From positions 1 to 10,144 of IMG/VR virus record IMGVR_UViG_3300029742_000228: 10,144 nucleotides of DNA; one strand, written 5' to 3'. Position 1 is the first letter of the stretch; each line of letters begins with the position of its first letter. Shown piece after piece: positions 1-10,144 of this stretch. The notes beneath the pieces were generated by a model that saw nothing but the letters and a program-made list of their open reading frames with translations, did not search any database and was not told the DNA's origin. Made by a program: the position numbers and the translations under genes. The DNA is from a virus (lineage: Duplodnaviria; Heunggongvirae; Uroviricota; Caudoviricetes).

Positions 1-584
1 ATCATCCACCCAACTTAACTGAAACCAGGATGAAGTATATGCATATAAAGTTCACTTTGCCAAACGTCAGTATAAAAAACCACATAAAAAATAGGGTGTG
101 ATAAAAAATACCGTAACAATAAAGCAAAGGATTATAAATTCCGTTACAGTTACAAATGATACTCAAGAAACAATTCCTTAGGAAAAACTTATTTACAGCC
201 AATAAGTAAGACACTTATATGATATCAAGTTTTCATAAAACATAACTAGGCTAAATAGCTGCGCCTAATACCGCTACACTTTTGCCAGCCCATGTTTGCC
301 TCCGGGTATTGACCCCTTCTCTACGCAACTTCAGTTCCCACCACCAACTTTGCGGCAGCTTTGTAGGATCAATGTCTAAAAGAATAATGGTGACCGATAA
401 GAAAACGACTGAATAACTGCAAATTTTCGCTCAAAACCTTCCTGTCAGATCCATAGCGAATCAAGTGCTGAATGTCACAGTATCAAACAGAAAACAGTGA
501 CGATCTAACCCTTCAAGAATATTCTACGATTGTTCTGTTTAGGAAAAGCAAGGCGGGAAGTCGGGAGATAAGTCATTGATAAAG

Positions 585-646
585 TGGCGGAGAGAGGGGG
601 ATTTGAACCCCCGGTAGAGTTGCCCCTACTCCGGTTTTCGAGACCG
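585..646 (-). tRNA. Partial tRNA-Ser (anticodon CGA, serU-like): 3' portion only, from anticodon loop through variable arm, T-arm and acceptor CCA; 5' half absent. Interpreted as the att core duplicate at the prophage end.
   Basis: Reverse complement of 585-646 reads CGGTCTCGAAAACCGGAGTAGGGGCAACTCTACCGGGGGTTCAAATCCCCCTCTCTCCGCCA: anticodon loop CUCGAAA, long variable arm typical of tRNA-Ser, T-arm GGGGGTTCAAATCCCCC, 3' CCA. It matches my recollection of E. coli serU. The match stops at 646/647, so the D-arm and 5' acceptor strand are missing. Confidence 0.75.
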
Positions 647-1075
647 ATGATACAGAGTCGAAAAATCAAAGAGTTAAAAATTTCTCTTGGAATAAATGTC
701 TTAAAATTGTACACGAAAAATCAATGAATTACATAACATTAAAGAAGAATATTCCAAGCCTTCTTGAGGCTACCACCTGTTTTCAGGTGTCATTCAGACG
801 TGATTTGCCCCAGATTGGGAAAGCACGCTTTTTTCTCAGCTATCGCCCTCTTATTTTGCCGTTACATTTCTTTTTGCACTCTAATGATTAATTTACAATA
901 ATAATATCGGTAATTATTGAGTAATAATAAATTGATTATTGCAAATGTAATTTAATTCCATCTTCGCGTTATATTCCAATCTTTAATCTCCGCATGGAAC
1001 AAGTTGCATGCGTGACTATATTAAGACAACTTATAACCACCAAAACATTTGCTTTGCAAGCAAAAACAGTGACCA

Positions 1076-1104
1076 TTGACTCTAAGAAAATTCCGATCTA
1101 TTGT
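1076..1104 (+). promoter_or_regulatory. Candidate sigma70-like promoter: -35 TTGACT (1076-1081), 17-bp spacer, -10 TATTGT (1099-1104)
   Basis: Hexamers read directly from the sequence, located about 35 nt upstream of the small ORF at 1139. AT-rich context makes chance matches common. Confidence 0.2.
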
Positions 1105-1138
1105 TAGGATCATCAAAGTTACTTAACAGTATTCCGAA

Positions 1139-1240
1139 ATGAAAATACAAAGCAAGCTAATTGTCTTATTAAACATTATCATTGCATTTATATTATTTGA
1201 GCTTTTAGCTCAAAAATTTGGTTTGAGTACATTATTTTAA
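1139..1240 (+). CDS. Hypothetical 33-aa hydrophobic peptide (MKIQSKLIVLLNIIIAFILFELLAQKFGLSTLF); possible small membrane protein or type I toxin-like moron, or a chance ORF in AT-rich DNA
   Basis: ATG at 1139, TAA at 1238-1240. Lys-containing N-terminus followed by a roughly 18-residue hydrophobic stretch. No strong Shine-Dalgarno. Candidate promoter upstream and a plus-strand terminator downstream. Confidence 0.2.
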   Translation: MKIQSKLIVLLNIIIAFILFELLAQKFGLSTLF

Positions 1241-1389
1241 AGCAAGATAAACAATATCGGGCACTCTAGTTTTTATAATTAACAATTAAACGTCCATAAA
1301 ATGTTATTTACTTTTCTTCGCTATTGTCATATCTTAATATAGTGGCTTACGCCACTCTACTTTCATCACATTTTGTACGTTTATGTACT

Positions 1390-1422
1390 CGCCATGAAGC
1401 TCTTTCATGGCGATTTTTTATT
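1390..1422 (+). terminator. Rho-independent terminator-like hairpin (stem CGCCATGAA / TTCATGGCG, loop GCTCT) followed by ATTTTTTATT
   Basis: Perfect 9-bp stem at 1390-1398 and 1404-1412 followed by a T-run on the plus strand. The minus-strand side lacks a U-run, so it appears to be plus-oriented. Confidence 0.5.
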
Positions 1423-1505
1423 CTTAATCCAAGAACATACTCCCTACCTATAGCAAAATCACTTTTTTAACAAAAGAATAACGTATTTAGGTAATCATTA
1501 CGAAT

Positions 1506-1640
1506 TTACCCTATAGGTGCTACTGGCCATTCAATATCCGGTGCAGTTGATGTATCAACACGGTTCAGCAACACCCGATACTTTTTCCAGGCTTCCAGCA
1601 ACGAGTTTTCTTCCTCCGTTGCGATCTCCAGCTCAACAAC
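1506..1640 (-). pseudogene. tfa: 3' remnant of a tail fibre assembly (Tfa) gene: last ~45 codons only, with no start and no N-terminal domain
   Basis: Minus-strand translation gives ...[42 protein letters not shown], stop at 1506-1508. This matches the conserved C-terminus of lambda-family Tfa proteins as I recall it. It lies in the same frame as, and immediately after, the TGA stop of the upstream fibre ORF. Confidence 0.6.
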
Positions 1641-1685
1641 AGTCTGAACGTACCAGGAACAGCCTCCTTCAGGGCTTGAAGGATA

Positions 1686-3863
1686 TCAATGTTCGCTTCC
1701 TGTTAACTGCCGGACAAGTGCAACCAGTTCGCTTACCTGATTTTCCAGAGTGCTGATCCGGGTGCCTGCTGTTGCCAGATTTTGACGTAGCGTTGTGTTT
1801 TCCTCTTCCAGCGCGGTAACGCGATCATCTGTTTCACGGGCGACCTGAACAAGTAAACCTGTCACGGCAGAGTAGTCAACATTAAGATAGCGCGTTTCTT
1901 CGCGTAGCTCGTTGCCGTCAACGGTCGGACCTTGCAACTCTTCACCGTAATGAGTAAACGATCCCACAGCTTCTGGTATCGCCTCCATTACTTCCTGTGC
2001 AATAACGCCAGCATAAGGCATCCCGTTGTCCTTGAACGTGTAGGTGTATCCGTTCATTTTACGGATTGCTTTCGTCGCGTCGCTGATAACGAGAATATCG
2101 TCTTTAAGGTCGCGGTCTGATGACTGATTCAGCGTTGTGCAATTAATAGCGCCATTTACATCAAACAACTGGCCTGCTGACGTTTTTTGCGCATAAAACA
2201 GATACGCAGCAGACGTTCCAACCTCAAAAACGTTTTGTCGATCACTTGATCCCCATACTTTTGCGGCAAATGATAGTTCTGTATTACCTAAGTTCTGTAA
2301 AACAAAACGATTGCCAGTCCCTGATTGCTTTGTAAGGGTTAAATCAACAGTTGAGTTAACCTCATCCTTGTTGATAGTGAGCGCCTGCGCTTTAGCCCCG
2401 TTAACAGCACCTGTTTTGAGTTGAACCGCGCCGTCATTACCATTTAGCAGTATCTCAGCTCCGCTAAAGAAATTTTTTAGCGACAGCATCTTACTTACGC
2501 CGACTGATGAACCCAACGCCCACGCGAGAGAATTACCGGTGCTATCAAACCCACGTACAAAGCAATCCATTTTGCTATAGTCTGACGTGCTTCCAAGGAC
2601 ATCAATTCGCCCTCCGCCAGATTTTACCGGGTTAGATGTGGTTAATGACCTGACAGCAAGATCGGTAGATGCATTGAGATCGTCTACTGTTAATAGTCGT
2701 TTCCATCCCTTATCAACCCCAGCCTCAAAGCTTCTTGCCCAAAATTTGGAGTTGCGACCGGCGAATTGTGTGACGTAATTACCGCTAAATTGAGCATGGA
2801 ATCCGCCAACAACCATTGTTCCGTCAGGACCGCCTGCGCTCCCTGCTATTGGCTTAAACTTATTTACATTCTCTGTATGTTGAGTGCTCCAGTTTTGCCC
2901 TGTGTGAACAACCAATCCCTGATAAGAACTGAAGGTACCATCAAGGTTAAAATTAAAGAACTTACTGTTCCCTGAATTATTTATGTCCCTGACAACAATT
3001 TCACCAGAAGCGTTAGCGGCCCTTAGTTCAGTTTGATCGACAACCGGACCTCCTTCGGATTGTAATCTTTGAGAAACAAATGTTCTGTTTGAAGCGTCCG
3101 TACCGTACGCGGTGAAAGATTGTGTTGCTTTAATCTGACCATTGTTTACAAATATAGGAATAGTGACGGTAAAATTTTTGTCAAAACTCAGGCCATTTGT
3201 TAATGCAATCCTTTCTGACACCCCTTGTCTGAACGGAAGGTTGCTGTAGAAGCCATGTTCACCGCCAGTGAAGTCAAGAACATTTTTAACAAAGTTCTTG
3301 TCGTTATCCTCCGTTGACGTTGATACACCAAACTTATATCTAACCCCGTTGTCACCAATTACGTAGTCTTCTGTTGGAACCTTAACTTTTGCCTTGTAGC
3401 CAGTTTGCACAACGACAGGAAAAGCGCTTTTATGGATGTAGAAAGCTACATGCTGCGCATAATCTCTTTGCGACGCTTTAATGCAAAGTATCCCGAGTTC
3501 ATTTTTTTCATAGCAAACAAATGACCCGTAAGCCACATCGCGAACGTCACTCCAGCCACCGCATCGAAAATATCCACTAAATGTATTGCTATTAAGCGGG
3601 TCTGATGATAAACGTCCTGCTGTTTTTATATCAATAGGACATGTCAGGTTGCCGTAACCTTCCATTGCGGATGTGTCTATTATGACAGGGTAGTATTTGC
3701 CATCCACTGCACCACCAGGTGCATTAATGGTCATCGCTTTTGTTAACCCACCCTCAGGGATTTGCAAATTAGTTTTGGCGTCATCAAGGCTATTTGCGCC
3801 AGTGCCACCATGAGAAACATCAAGTGGTATCCATTTTTTTGTGTGTCGCTGTAACACCCCCAT
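1686..3863 (-). CDS. Tail fibre / tailspike distal (receptor-binding) protein with a C-terminal intramolecular chaperone auto-processing domain (Peptidase S74 type), 725 aa
   Basis: Long minus-strand ORF. The C-terminal ~144 aa contain S-D-R-D-L-K (Ser-Lys dyad spacing), GYTYTFKDNG, GVIAQEVMEAIPEAV and a terminal coiled-coil-like segment, the hallmark of self-cleaving fibre chaperone domains. The N-terminus contains a GGTGA-type fibre motif. This stretch looks more AT-rich than the J region. Confidence 0.8.
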   Translation of the reverse strand: MGVLQRHTKKWIPLDVSHGGTGANSLDDAKTNLQIPEGGLTKAMTINAPGGAVDGKYYPVIIDTSAMEGYGNLTCPIDIKTAGRLSSDPLNSNTFSGYFRCGGWSDVRDVAYGSFVCYEKNELGILCIKASQRDYAQHVAFYIHKSAFPVVVQTGYKAKVKVPTEDYVIGDNGVRYKFGVSTSTEDNDKNFVKNVLDFTGGEHGFYSNLPFRQGVSERIALTNGLSFDKNFTVTIPIFVNNGQIKATQSFTAYGTDASNRTFVSQRLQSEGGPVVDQTELRAANASGEIVVRDINNSGNSKFFNFNLDGTFSSYQGLVVHTGQNWSTQHTENVNKFKPIAGSAGGPDGTMVVGGFHAQFSGNYVTQFAGRNSKFWARSFEAGVDKGWKRLLTVDDLNASTDLAVRSLTTSNPVKSGGGRIDVLGSTSDYSKMDCFVRGFDSTGNSLAWALGSSVGVSKMLSLKNFFSGAEILLNGNDGAVQLKTGAVNGAKAQALTINKDEVNSTVDLTLTKQSGTGNRFVLQNLGNTELSFAAKVWGSSDRQNVFEVGTSAAYLFYAQKTSAGQLFDVNGAINCTTLNQSSDRDLKDDILVISDATKAIRKMNGYTYTFKDNGMPYAGVIAQEVMEAIPEAVGSFTHYGEELQGPTVDGNELREETRYLNVDYSAVTGLLVQVARETDDRVTALEEENTTLRQNLATAGTRISTLENQVSELVALVRQLTGSEH
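1689..2120 (-). other. Peptidase S74 / intramolecular chaperone domain of the fibre protein; predicted autocleavage at the Ser encoded at 2118-2120
   Basis: The motif SSDRDLKDDI is encoded at about 2090-2125 on the minus strand (tca tca gac cgc gac ctt). Everything downstream to the stop would be the released chaperone. Confidence 0.7.
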
Positions 3864-5287
3864 GTTGATCCGGTTAAACCCAGGCGCATGGATTTATCAT
3901 GGTTATATAACCATGTTTCGCTATTCCATTGGTCAAGACGGTCCACTTCATTTTTGCGAGCGTGGCGTGTCCATTGCGGGCCTGTTGTCGGACTCCAGCG
4001 ATAGGTATAAAGCGAGCGAGTAGTCCATCCCTGAAATACACCTGTATACGCTGGAGTTCCATCTACCTGACTAATAAACCCCGTAAGACTGCTTTCACCG
4101 GATGCAATAGACGGGAAACCTGTTGCATCAGCCATGATGCGCATAAAGCCAATATAACCTGATGGATTTCCTGAGATGTCAGAGCAACCACGCGGTGATG
4201 ATCCCAAACCGATGTTAGTACCAACAATACCCTGGGCCTGGTTGCGATAATTAAGTGCGTCCGCCGCAGATTTCGCCGCGTTTGTTTCACTGGATTTAGC
4301 ATTAGTTTCGCTGGCTTTAGCGTTTGTTTCGCTGCTCTTTGCTGCTGCCTCGCTATTTTTCGCGTTGGTTTCTGATTTTTTGGCTGCTGTCGCGGAGTTT
4401 GCCGATGCAGTTTGTGAGTCTGCTGCCGCCTGTGCGCTGTTATCCGCATTCGTCTCAGACGTTTTTGCGGCCTTCGCGGAATTTCCTGCCGCCGTTGCCG
4501 AGGAAGCTGCACTACTGGCACTTGATGATGCGTTCGTTTCTGATGATTTCGCTACCTCTTTTGAGGCCGCCGCATCCCGGGCTGAGGTGGCAGCTTCTGA
4601 CGCTTTCGTGGTCGCGGTGGATGCAGAAGTAGCTGCAGATTTTTGTGACACTGCAGCATTCGTTTCTGACGTTTTCGCCGCACCGGCACTGGTGGCCGCC
4701 GCGCTTTTTGAGGACTCTGCAGCGGCAGCACTTTTTGATGCTTCAGTGGCCTTTGTTGATGCCGTTCCTGCGCTGGAAGACGCTGACTGAGCCGACGACG
4801 CGGCCTGTCCGGCTGACGTGCTGGCTGCGCGTGCTGAGCCTGCAGCATCAGTCGCATGGGTTGCCGCCTCACGGGCTGATGTGCCGGCATCGCTGGCTGA
4901 CTTCTTCGCGGCTGCCGTGTTCTGTGCCACTGCGGACGCGTTACGCGCCACCTCTTCCACCATCAGTTCAAAGCGGCGCAGTGCCTCCGGACGGGCATCA
5001 TCCTCCGTCATGGCACCGAGAAAATCATTCAGCGTACCCGGTTGTGAGTCTTCATACACGGTGATGGTCCCGGCATGCGATGGCGGGAAGCCTTCCACCA
5101 TCAGAATAACGCTGTACTGACCGTACTCAACGTCCATGCTGTAACGCCCGGCTTCATCCGGATTTTCTGAGGCCACCGTGTTCACCACCACCGTGGTGCT
5201 GTTACGTTTTGCTTTCAGCTGGATTGTGCAGTTCTGTACCGGTTTACCTGCACCGTCTTTCAGTACACCTGAAATCTTTACTGCCAT
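3743..5287 (-). CDS. stf: Side tail fibre protein, N-terminal/shaft part: lambda Stf-like N-terminus, then an Ala/Ser/Thr-rich heptad repeat region, then a non-lambda segment. Its last ~40 codons overlap the next ORF out of frame.
   Basis: Translation begins MAVKISGVLKDGAGKPVQNCTIQLKAKRNSTTVVVNTVASENPDEAGRYSMDVEYGQYSV..., near-identical to my recollection of the lambda Stf N-terminus. ATG at 5285-5287, preceded by GGGGTG. The ORF track's start at 5293 is an upstream GTG. Confidence 0.8.
   Translation of the reverse strand: MAVKISGVLKDGAGKPVQNCTIQLKAKRNSTTVVVNTVASENPDEAGRYSMDVEYGQYSVILMVEGFPPSHAGTITVYEDSQPGTLNDFLGAMTEDDARPEALRRFELMVEEVARNASAVAQNTAAAKKSASDAGTSAREAATHATDAAGSARAASTSAGQAASSAQSASSSAGTASTKATEASKSAAAAESSKSAAATSAGAAKTSETNAAVSQKSAATSASTATTKASEAATSARDAAASKEVAKSSETNASSSASSAASSATAAGNSAKAAKTSETNADNSAQAAADSQTASANSATAAKKSETNAKNSEAAAKSSETNAKASETNAKSSETNAAKSAADALNYRNQAQGIVGTNIGLGSSPRGCSDISGNPSGYIGFMRIMADATGFPSIASGESSLTGFISQVDGTPAYTGVFQGWTTRSLYTYRWSPTTGPQWTRHARKNEVDRLDQWNSETWLYNHDKSMRLGLTGSTWGCYSDTQKNGYHLMFLMVALAQIALMTPKLICKSLRVG
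3898..3915. repeat. Perfect 18-bp palindrome CATGGTTATATAACCATG
   Basis: Read directly from the sequence. It lies 35 nt upstream of the ATG of the distal fibre ORF, inside the 3' part of the stf ORF, and causes the mirrored HGYITM peptides in the spurious ORFs on both strands. Confidence 0.9.
4253..4936 (-). repeat. Low-complexity tandem repeat region inside stf encoding Ala/Ser/Thr-rich 7-residue units (e.g. KSSETNA, KASETNA, KNSEAAA); about 21-nt DNA periodicity
   Basis: Repeated GCGAAAC(T/A)AA(T/C)GC-type units are visible on the plus strand around 4262-4400. The protein shows heptad periodicity across roughly residues 118-345. Confidence 0.6.
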
Positions 5288-5297
5288 ATTCACCCCA

Positions 5298-5325
5298 CAA
5301 AAAAGCCCGCCTGAACCGGCGGGCT
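5298..5325 (-). terminator. Rho-independent terminator downstream of lom (stem AGCCCGCC / GGCGGGCT, then U-run on the minus-strand transcript)
   Basis: Plus strand shows AAAAAAA then GCCCGCC-TGAACC-GGCGGGCT. On the minus strand this is a GC-rich hairpin followed by TTTTTT, sitting between the lom stop (5352) and the stf start (5287). Confidence 0.5.
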
Positions 5326-5351
5326 GTCATAACACTGTGTTACCTGGCTAA

Positions 5352-5951
5352 TCAGAACTTATAACCGACACCCACGATGAAACCGTCAGTGCGCCAGTCG
5401 CCACTGCCGGAGCCTTCATAAGCAATATCAATGGCCACGGATTCGGTCGGGTTAAACTGCACGCCAGCCCCCCACGCCAGAGACGTGTTGCTGCGGCGAC
5501 CGTCATCACTTCCGGTCAGCACTTCGTGCGTTTTCCCCTTGTTGTCAGTTACGCGGAGATAATCCCCGGAGAAAGTCGAAATACGGCTGTAAGCCACACC
5601 CGCCATCGCATACGCGCTGAACCATTCATTCACGCGCACAGACGGCCCCGCCATCACGCTGAACCAGCGGTTACGCACGGAATCTTCATGCCAGCGGGTA
5701 TCGCTGTAATGAGTCAGCTGGCGATTCTTGTCTTCTGCATAGCTGAATGACGTCACCATCCCCAGCGTGTCCGTAAACTCATAACGGTATTTCACGTTAA
5801 TCCCGTTAAGATCATCACTGCCGGGAACGTTGGTCCGGGCATGAAGATACCCCGCGCTCAGCGTGGACTGATGTTCAGACGCCCATGCAGGCGCACAGGA
5901 TACGGCCAGACAAATGGCTGCGGACAAAATGGCGGCATAAAGTTTACGCAT
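5352..5951 (-). CDS. lom: Lom, Ail/Lom-family outer membrane beta-barrel protein (lysogenic-conversion moron), 199 aa with signal peptide
   Basis: Translation MRKLYAAILSAAICLAVSCAPAWASEHQSTLSAGYLHA...DGFIVGVGYKF matches lambda Lom as I recall it, including the C-terminal aromatic residue typical of OMPs. Shine-Dalgarno GAGAGG upstream of the ATG at 5949-5951. Confidence 0.9.
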   Translation of the reverse strand: MRKLYAAILSAAICLAVSCAPAWASEHQSTLSAGYLHARTNVPGSDDLNGINVKYRYEFTDTLGMVTSFSYAEDKNRQLTHYSDTRWHEDSVRNRWFSVMAGPSVRVNEWFSAYAMAGVAYSRISTFSGDYLRVTDNKGKTHEVLTGSDDGRRSNTSLAWGAGVQFNPTESVAIDIAYEGSGSGDWRTDGFIVGVGYKF

Positions 5952-5974
5952 AATTACCTCTCGCTTTTCTGCAA

Positions 5975-5999
5975 TAAAAAAGGCGTCATTTCTGACGCC
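5975..5999 (-). terminator. Rho-independent terminator-like hairpin between the J stop and lom start (stem GGCGTCA / TGACGCC, loop TTTC, then U-run on minus strand)
   Basis: Plus strand reads AAAAAAA-GGCGTCA-TTTC-TGACGCC at 5975-5999. On the minus strand this is a hairpin followed by TTTTTT. Confidence 0.5.
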
Positions 6000-6017
6000 C
6001 GTTATGGGTTATAAAAT

Positions 6018-9412
<3,395 letters not shown>

Positions 9413-9472
9413 TCGTCATGCTCCATAAACGATAAAACCGCCCGGAGGCGGTTTCACATAAAACATTTTGCA

Positions 9473-10144
9473 TCAGCGACCAATCACCACAACCTGACCA
9501 CCATCCCCTTCGTCTGCCGTGCTGATCTCCTGAGAAACCACCCGCGACCCCACGCGCATTTCACCGTACAGAACAGGCAAAACATTGCCCTGGGCAACCA
9601 TGTTATCCAGTGAGGAGAAATAGGTGTTCTGCTTACCGTTATCCGTTGTCTGTGTACGGGGAGTTCTGGCTTTCGGTGCCAGCATCTGCGCCACACCACC
9701 GAGCACCATACTGGCACCGAGAGAAAACAGGATGCCGGTCATACCACCAGCCCCAATGGCTGCCCCCCATGCTGCAAGGGTGGCTCCGGCGGTAAAGAAT
9801 GATCCGGCAATGGCGGCAGCCCCCAGGACAATCTGGAATACGCCACCTGACTTGGCCCCGGCGACTCTGGGAACAATATGAATCACAGCGCCATCAGGCA
9901 GAGTCTCATGTAACTGCGCCGTTAACCCGGACGTGCTGACGTCCCGCCCGGCAATCCGTACCTGATACCAGCCGTCGCTCAGTTTCTGACGAAACGCCGG
10001 GAGCTGTGTGGCCAGTGCCCGGATGGCTTCAGCCCCCGTTTTCACACGAAGGTCGATGCGGCGACCAAATCGTTGTAAATCCCCGTAAAGGCAGATGCGC
10101 GCCATGCCCGGTGACGCCAGAGGGAGTGTGTGCGTCGCTGCCAT
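9473..10144 (-). CDS. I: Tail assembly protein I (lambda gpI-like), 223 aa, complete; start codon at the last bases of the window
   Basis: Translation MAATHTLPLASPGMARICLYGDLQRFGRRIDLRVKTGAEAIRALATQLPAF... matches lambda gpI as I recall it. Stop at 9473-9475, ATG at 10142-10144. Confidence 0.9.
   Translation of the reverse strand: MAATHTLPLASPGMARICLYGDLQRFGRRIDLRVKTGAEAIRALATQLPAFRQKLSDGWYQVRIAGRDVSTSGLTAQLHETLPDGAVIHIVPRVAGAKSGGVFQIVLGAAAIAGSFFTAGATLAAWGAAIGAGGMTGILFSLGASMVLGGVAQMLAPKARTPRTQTTDNGKQNTYFSSLDNMVAQGNVLPVLYGEMRVGSRVVSQEISTADEGDGGQVVVIGR

Follow-up and report, generated by a model that had tools for sequence, protein, structure and literature searches.

The window analysed in this study is a 10,144-nt stretch of phage DNA that carries, close to its left end, a short piece of a bacterial tRNA gene (Table 1). 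From position 647 onward it leads into phage tail genes, with I, J, lom, stf and an S74-type fibre gene all lying on the minus strand. To the left of the tRNA piece we found chromosomal DNA of E. coli, the remnant of an insertion sequence and the upstream region of a regulator gene. The context beyond the left edge was deduced from near-identical genomes, mainly from that of E. coli TUM1887, which is 99.97% identical to the window over positions 1–9645. The homology to TUM1887 is gone after 9645, and the tail protein genes of that genome are annotated as partial there; the window therefore derives from a prophage that is nearly identical to this one but less degraded.

Table 1. Features at the left end and along the phage side of the window, with strand and the basis of each assignment
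Feature	Position	Strand	Basis
Promoter/5' region upstream of an AraC-family regulator gene carried by the phage	1–250	-	Adjoins the AraC CDS in every context examined
Terminal 56 nt of an IS630-family (ISEc33-like) element	251–306		93–98% identity to the ends of transposase genes annotated as IS630-family
Captured E. coli chromosomal DNA, 278 bp directly downstream of serU toward yodB	307–584	-	97.1% identity to K-12 (L003 3191–3468)
serU 3' fragment, tRNA-Ser(CGA) nt 29–90 with CCA; fossil attR core	585–646	-	Exact match to serU
Anticodon stem-loop segment, inferred original strand-exchange site	628–646	-	Lies between host-allele positions (616, 627) and phage arm at 647
Phage-side arm ('arm A') of serU-type attachment site	647–841		Matches attR-proximal arm of serU prophages
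AT-rich (~31% GC) stretch without long ORF, end of phage b region	842–1505		Composition, ORF list; shared with serU prophage of 47-1826
Tail fibre assembly (tfa) 3' remnant	1506–1637	-	Annotated as partial in TUM1887, NC22, strain 673 and 47-1826
Side tail fibre gene with C-terminal S74 peptidase/chaperone domain	1686–5293	-	Overlapping ORFs 1686–3863 and 3743–5293

Read on the minus strand, the tRNA piece is CGGTCTCGAAAACCGGAGTAGGGGCAACTCTACCGGGGGTTCAAATCCCCCTCTCTCCGCCA. It is identical at 62 of 62 positions to the 3' part of the 90-nt serU gene in both K-12 MG1655 and TUM1887. It retains four out of five bases on the 5' side of the anticodon stem and, beyond these, the anticodon loop (CGA), long variable arm, T arm, 3' acceptor strand and CCA end. 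The 5' 28 nt of serU are missing, and the likeness to the gene ends at 646/647. Within 585–646 there is no complete cloverleaf of acceptor stem, D arm and anticodon arm, as a functional tRNA would have. ARAGORN reported no tRNA genes in the whole window, and a search of the window against Rfam (E up to 1) returned no tRNA-family match; the by-products that it gave, one partial match to tmRNA and one match to a plastid family antisense to trnS, fell on the T-arm region only. The initial annotation, which had described no more than the 3' 62 nt of a tRNA-Ser(CGA) gene, a divergence exactly at 647 and a phage side with tail genes beyond it, was correct in all of this, and the closer look for a full tRNA that it proposed yielded none. 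A second copy of the 62-nt core does not occur within the window.

The match to serU is not a matter of chance, because the 62 nt are embedded in a 340-bp block (307–646) that is 97.1% identical to K-12 (L003 3191–3530) and 97.4% identical to the serU locus of TUM1887 (E ~1e-165). Lambdoid phages are known to carry tRNA genes of their own at other places, as SerU-LTIIb does, and one might consider the piece a degraded phage tRNA gene, a chance similarity or the product of a chimeric assembly. Its perfect identity to serU together with 278 bp of flanking chromosomal homology, and the recurrence of this arrangement in independent phage records as well as in over 100 complete genomes, make the probability of any of these negligible.

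The flank to the left of the fragment is composite. Its homology to the chromosome breaks off sharply at 306/307, where the insertion sequence begins. The outer end of the IS630 remnant lies at ~251 and faces the AraC side, whereas the element is broken internally at 306, with host DNA from there on. The IS630 inverted repeat, CTAAATAGCTGCGC, is present at the opposite end of the IS as aligned to NZ_CP048920.1. Within 1–250 we found no homology to the serU region of either K-12 or TUM1887. The AraC CDS itself occupies L001 19257–20000 (minus strand) in TUM1887 and the window starts at L001 20001, its start codon abutting position 1. The earlier view that all of 1–584 is host DNA can be kept for 307–584 only; positions 1–306, made up of the IS630 remnant and AraC upstream DNA, show no serU–yodB homology.

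Some further observations concern this side of the window. The gene for the 247-aa AraC-family regulator is a constant companion of the fragment, just left of window position 1, and fragments of IS2/IS3 lie on either side of it. By the position of its O157:H7 homologue in the thrW-proximal island, and in the light of a review (PMC10877973), the regulator is probably PatE (z0321, OI-8). PatE is a prophage-encoded activator of acid resistance (PMC10877973). One candidate for a 'parental' AraC module without the tRNA fragment, in H215, had to be discarded: its apparent break at window position 206 is an IS1 insertion. Capture simply mediated by the IS, with an IS terminus as the left junction, was rejected as well. 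The joint is at 306, inside the IS630 remnant and not at an IS terminus, which excludes simple transposition.

What kind of attachment site does the fragment represent? In the variable arm the core in the window has the host allele GGTAGAG/CCCCTACT, as in K-12. At attL of the true serU prophages in strains 47-1826 and LH85-a, where an intact tRNA is followed by the phage P' arm and the integrase gene, we found instead the phage allele GGTGGAG/CCCCCACT with two compensatory changes in the variable arm. Because the fragment combines the host allele with chromosomal downstream DNA, it has the signature of an attR and not of an attP or attL. The features expected of the attR scar of a serU phage were all found here, namely a truncated 3' tRNA segment, an adjoining phage-side arm homologous to that of true serU prophages and a host-allele core. 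The original strand exchange would have taken place in the anticodon stem-loop, 13–15 nt of which form the sole tRNA identity in related sites of other elements.

The arm on the phage side leads to the same assignment. Positions 307–841 form a block that shares 97.8% identity with the corresponding stretch in the LH85-a serU prophage, and 647–762 are 95% identical to phage SerU-LTIIb (KU052038), whose depositors had marked these 62 nt, beside yodB, as a pseudo-tRNA-Ser. Arm A also contains an 18-nt direct repeat (659–676 and 714–731), and the two copies may be candidate arm-type integrase sites. The attR sites of SerU-LTIIb, 47-1826 and LH85-a all resemble the window in the 62 nt, in the phage arm (647–762 or up to 841), in the first 278 bp of host flank and in the host-allele core. 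In contrast to them, the host flank here stops after 278 bp, and the junction lies within a prophage that is integrated elsewhere and that has, as judged in TUM1887, no cognate attL, tRNA or integrase.

Strain 47-1826 (NZ_CP184839.1) is especially instructive. Its true serU prophage is collinear with window positions 307–10144 at 96% identity, with 94% query coverage in three pieces. The order there is zinT, yodB, the 278 bp, the 62 nt, arm A, the AT-rich spacer, the tfa remnant, the S74 fibre gene and the rest of the prophage, followed by a frameshifted integrase, an intact serU and mtfA. This is likely the ancestral state. The initial annotation had explained the fragment as an att core duplicated when a phage integrated into the 3' end of a tRNA gene, and as to origin this explanation stands: a lambdoid phage integrated into serU, and the predicted layout is found exactly in 47-1826, where the model of an att duplicate at the current boundary is literally true. 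Compared with 47-1826, the window has only 278 bp of the host DNA, joined to IS630 and AraC sequences, and belongs to a prophage with a different integration site.

It is at the boundary of this prophage that the earlier interpretation fails. The prophage was thought to end at about 585–646, with the intact tRNA and an integrase at its far end. In TUM1887 the segment adjoins ybhB–bioA and not serU. The 15-bp lambda core GCTTTTTTATACTAA is present on the same strand at both ends of the TUM1887 prophage (L001 18245–18259 and L007 12683–12697). The left copy, beside ybhB, is the actual boundary and lies outside the window, 1742 bp (1.74 kb) to the left of position 1 and ~2.3 kb to the left of the fragment. 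The second copy is 36 kb from the first, between a lambda-type integrase and ybhC, so that the far end consists of lambda Int, lambda core and ybhC without any tRNA-Ser. This integrase is near-identical to lambda Int and matches lambda Int structures over its full length (789 bits to PDB 5j0n). With a core repeat at the ybhB/bio and ybhC/gal ends and a lambda-type Int, TUM1887 has a lambda-type attR outside the window. The gal–bio site is the boundary of this prophage lineage in NC22 and GPEC1054 too, and it is unrelated to the tRNA fragment.

The 64 kb spanning the TUM1887 prophage yielded neither a tRNA nor, with up to 3 mismatches allowed, another copy of the 62-mer. On that chromosome the only other 62-nt copy is that of the resident serU (1,976,504–1,976,593), which is flanked by mtfA and yodB as in K-12, intact and unoccupied, and lies 1.23 Mb from the fragment in inverted orientation. 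At the fragment, the host flank does not run on uninterrupted into yodB and zinT, the homology ending at 307.

It might still be argued that the fragment is the current attR, with 1–584 as host DNA and an intact serU and an integrase at the far end of the same prophage. After all, serU is a recognised site for lambdoid prophages (PMC7067040), and 47-1826 and LH85-a show this very layout with a closely related prophage. However, the DNA at 1–306 is not that of the serU–yodB region, and in TUM1887, the nearest genome, the prophage occupies lambda att while serU is empty. Moreover, a query joining window 100–646 to the 5' part of an intact serU and to mtfA was matched at ≥80% coverage in 0 of 5426 complete genomes. 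This explanation is therefore highly improbable. We are instead rather confident that the fragment is a fossil attR and not the present prophage–host boundary in this lineage.

The same module occurs in several unrelated contexts. In the phage records mEp332, ev099 and PhiR70_1, window positions 1–1648 or 1–1700 are found as one internal stretch at 98–99% identity. The ev099 record, which is in vegetative order, runs from tail fibre and tfa through the fossil, the AraC gene and IS2 fragments to the lambda attP core, int and xis. mEp332 is a plaque-forming lambdoid phage of K-12 (PMC3442831), and hence a hybrid att site with contiguous host DNA, as in specialised transduction, is found inside the packaged genome of a viable phage. 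At the lambda site of the chromosome we found the module in NC22 and GPEC1054 as well. In strain 673 it lies next to argW/intS and in O157:H7 strain 7636 in the thrW–proA island. None of the fossil occurrences that we examined was at serU. As a separate observation, in strain 673 (NZ_CP141196.1 2385815–2389927, L012) argW–intS borders immediately on the AraC gene, after which come the fossil and the tail-fibre genes. An int next to the b region within a chromosome, as in an attP, suggests a deleted or rearranged prophage.

How could the scar have come into these genomes? We infer the following route from the arrangement of the sequences. A lambdoid phage would have integrated into serU by a tyrosine-integrase crossover in the anticodon stem-loop, producing the usual attR of phage arm, host tRNA 3' part and host downstream DNA. 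Later this attR, with 278 bp of the flanking chromosome, would have become joined to a phage genome, either that of the serU prophage or of a derivative. The capture was probably an aberrant excision like that of lambda bio, or else some other illegitimate joining or recombination event, with the left joint inside the IS630 remnant. The segment would then have become established in the b region, which is dispensable, with the tail-fibre genes on one side and the AraC-regulator cargo gene on the other. By the usual modular recombination it would have spread to genomes with lambda att, argW/IntS or thrW/P4-like integration modules.

Specialised-transducing phages such as lambda bio and lambda gal, whose genomes are formed by aberrant excision, provide the closest parallel. 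As in these, a hybrid att and the adjacent chromosomal DNA lie by the b region of a viable phage genome, with one illegitimate joint. Unlike in lambda bio and gal, only 278 non-coding bp have been captured here, and the phage is not integration-defective, having a lambda-type int/attP ~2.3 kb away. The illegitimate joint, in addition, is situated in an IS630 remnant beside the AraC cargo and additional steps are therefore needed. The 306/307 joint is internal to this remnant and is followed by the AraC cargo and then by a foreign lambda-type int module. Capture intermediates, either direct ones or phages that have the whole IS630 or a longer piece of host DNA, were not found.

An alternative is that the capture happened by chromosomal rearrangement of neighbouring elements. 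For example, an IS630-associated deletion or recombination could have joined an AraC-carrying element to a serU prophage at its attR flank, and phages integrating at lambda att could later have picked up the product by homologous exchange in the tail and b region. Such an event would fit the presence of an IS630 remnant precisely at the left joint, of IS2/IS3 fragments around the AraC gene and of the module in degenerate islands as well as in phages. The internal position of the joint, on the other hand, is not that of a simple transposition product. In addition, no genome was seen with AraC/IS630 downstream of an unoccupied serU: the joined query gave 0 of 5426 at ≥80%, and the 25-mer across the 306/307 junction had no match in a collection with one genome per species. 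On the same two results we rejected an AraC/IS islet as a resident insertion downstream of serU. The 25-mer was found in 29 IMG/VR contigs. We regard a rearrangement of this kind as possible, if not very likely, and retain capture by aberrant excision or illegitimate recombination as the probable route.

Two well-known classes meet in this fossil, which belongs to both: att scars made of tRNA fragments, and host DNA captured beside att by imprecise excision. Fragments of the 3' part of tRNA genes are relics of past integrations and have been used to map genomic islands and tandem arrays. The sublocations of integration within tRNA and tmRNA genes have reportedly been treated in the work of K. 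Williams. As in other such relics, the 3' fragment marks an old integrase crossover, the sublocation here being the anticodon stem-loop. Whereas such relics usually lie at the tRNA locus itself, the scar described here is mobile. It is found at lambda att, argW and thrW as well as in phage genome records, and its presence at unrelated loci and inside viable phages is what makes it unusual.

Does the scar still have a function? With no tRNA possible and no cognate integrase present, we consider it likely that the fragment is functionally inert. It nevertheless remains a 340-bp patch of chromosomal homology and, by its structure, a complete serU-type attR. Elements that share the unique 306/307 junction continue after 646 with one of two unrelated sequences. 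Arm A, the form in the window, begins with ATGATACAGAGTCG. Arm B begins with GTCCAATCATCAAACG or ACCCGATC and is followed by a GIY-YIG gene, as in O157:H7. The presence of two different right arms on the same left junction shows that recombination has taken place at the site after the capture, and this would agree with a more active role.

Among 5426 complete genomes, 517 have one or the other form of the fossil (≥80% of window 150–760). The arm-A fossil is present in ~122 of them and the arm-B fossil in ~415, the latter being an estimate (428 at ≥80% minus 13 at serU). Arm A with the core (≥80% of 560–762) was found in 884 of the 5426, a number that includes the fossils. The count in IMG/VR contigs was 7 for the arm-A fossil and 23 for the arm-B fossil. 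Each arm is also found at true serU attR sites (arm B in 13 of the 5426 genomes) and, in IMG/VR, with a phage-allele core and P' arm, which is the true attP configuration. Furthermore, each of the two arms is joined to a cargo flank with a Dcm methylase and a restriction enzyme (contigs L043 and L109), where only the 15-nt anticodon stem-loop is shared with serU. Since both arms are joined to both flanks, all four combinations of arm and flank exist.

It might be possible that the scar is a live recombination site, at which RecA acting on the 340-bp homology or serU-type Int/Xis acting on the intact attR core repeatedly exchanges the DNA to the right of 646 among phages and islands. The unique 306/307 junction is joined at exactly 646/647 to either arm, both arms are found at true serU attR sites, and the arm and flank combinations, including that with the Dcm/restriction-enzyme flank, are complete. 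Yet the A/B pair could be accounted for by a single past homologous exchange with a resident serU attR, and the TUM1887 prophage lacks the cognate serU-type integrase. We judge a live site of this kind to be unlikely. The A/B pair is most simply explained if the fossil exchanged DNA once or a few times with resident serU elements by way of the 340-bp homology, although an integrase-mediated exchange at the core may also have produced it. An argument for site-specific exchange, according to which arm B never occurs at serU, was dropped in view of the 13 genomes with arm B at a true serU attR.

In a wider form of this idea the captured attR would act as a portable exchange joint in phages whose integration specificities are unrelated, with serU-type Int/Xis or RecA swapping tail-fibre and cargo arms between co-resident elements or rearranging the chromosome between the prophage and serU. 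Such a joint would be expected to leave behind all four combinations of two right arms and two left flanks, joined at the same few bases; we nevertheless consider this role doubtful, and continue to see the fragment as a probably inert fossil. There are further sites of a similar kind. In L043 and L109 (site ~L043 9659–9683) and in L049 (2397–2421) the arms adjoin unrelated cargo, consisting of a Dcm-type methylase and restriction enzyme or of GNAT and XRE-regulator genes by a P4-like integrase. The joints of these contigs have only 13–15 nt of the serU anticodon stem-loop in common. They may be attP sites with a short core or products of recombination at secondary sites.

For the reading of prophage genomes the fossil has a practical consequence. 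The usual logic of tRNA fragments would misplace the end of this prophage by ~2.3 kb and would wrongly predict a phage integrated at serU. About 10% of complete E. coli genomes carry the fossil away from serU, among them most O157:H7 strains, in which it lies beside the AraC-family regulator gene. It records a phage that picked up its own attR together with flanking host DNA, as well as the swapping of integration modules among lambdoid phages, from serU to lambda att, argW or thrW, and the assembly of cargo at the end of the b region. If it is true that the scar still recombines, this would be one concrete mechanism for lambdoid mosaicism. The fossil changes no principle. We found no paper that describes it, and no paper that mentions ev099.

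Several minor features were noted on the phage side of the window. The AT-rich stretch at the end of the b region is conserved in mEp332, ev099 and the serU prophage of 47-1826. It contains no ORF of more than 55 aa, and has a strong terminator-like hairpin at 1389–1413 (plus strand) with an 11-bp stem and a T run. It could hold a small transcript; Rfam had no match in 842–1505. Further on, Rfam matched IS009 at 1546–1746 (minus strand) with 93 bits, which does not reach the gathering score of 117. This match overlaps both the tfa remnant and the tail-fibre gene at its 3' end, and is probably due to conserved coding sequence of tfa and tail fibre, not to a small RNA.

The side tail fibre gene, split in the window, has been annotated in TUM1887 as one CDS with a frameshift and is a single ORF of 1260 aa in a related IMG/VR contig, L043; the split is probably that of a pseudogene or due to a sequencing frameshift. 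In its Ala/Ser-rich central part, at 4278–4678, a 23-nt motif occurs in five copies with a spacing of 84 nt (126 nt before the last copy), and it forms an in-frame protein repeat of 28 residues. Within gene J, a run of 32 N (masked bases) at 7641–7672 splits the reading frame artificially into ORFs 6018–7622 and 7577–9412. The counterpart in TUM1887 is one intact 3.4-kb gpJ gene.
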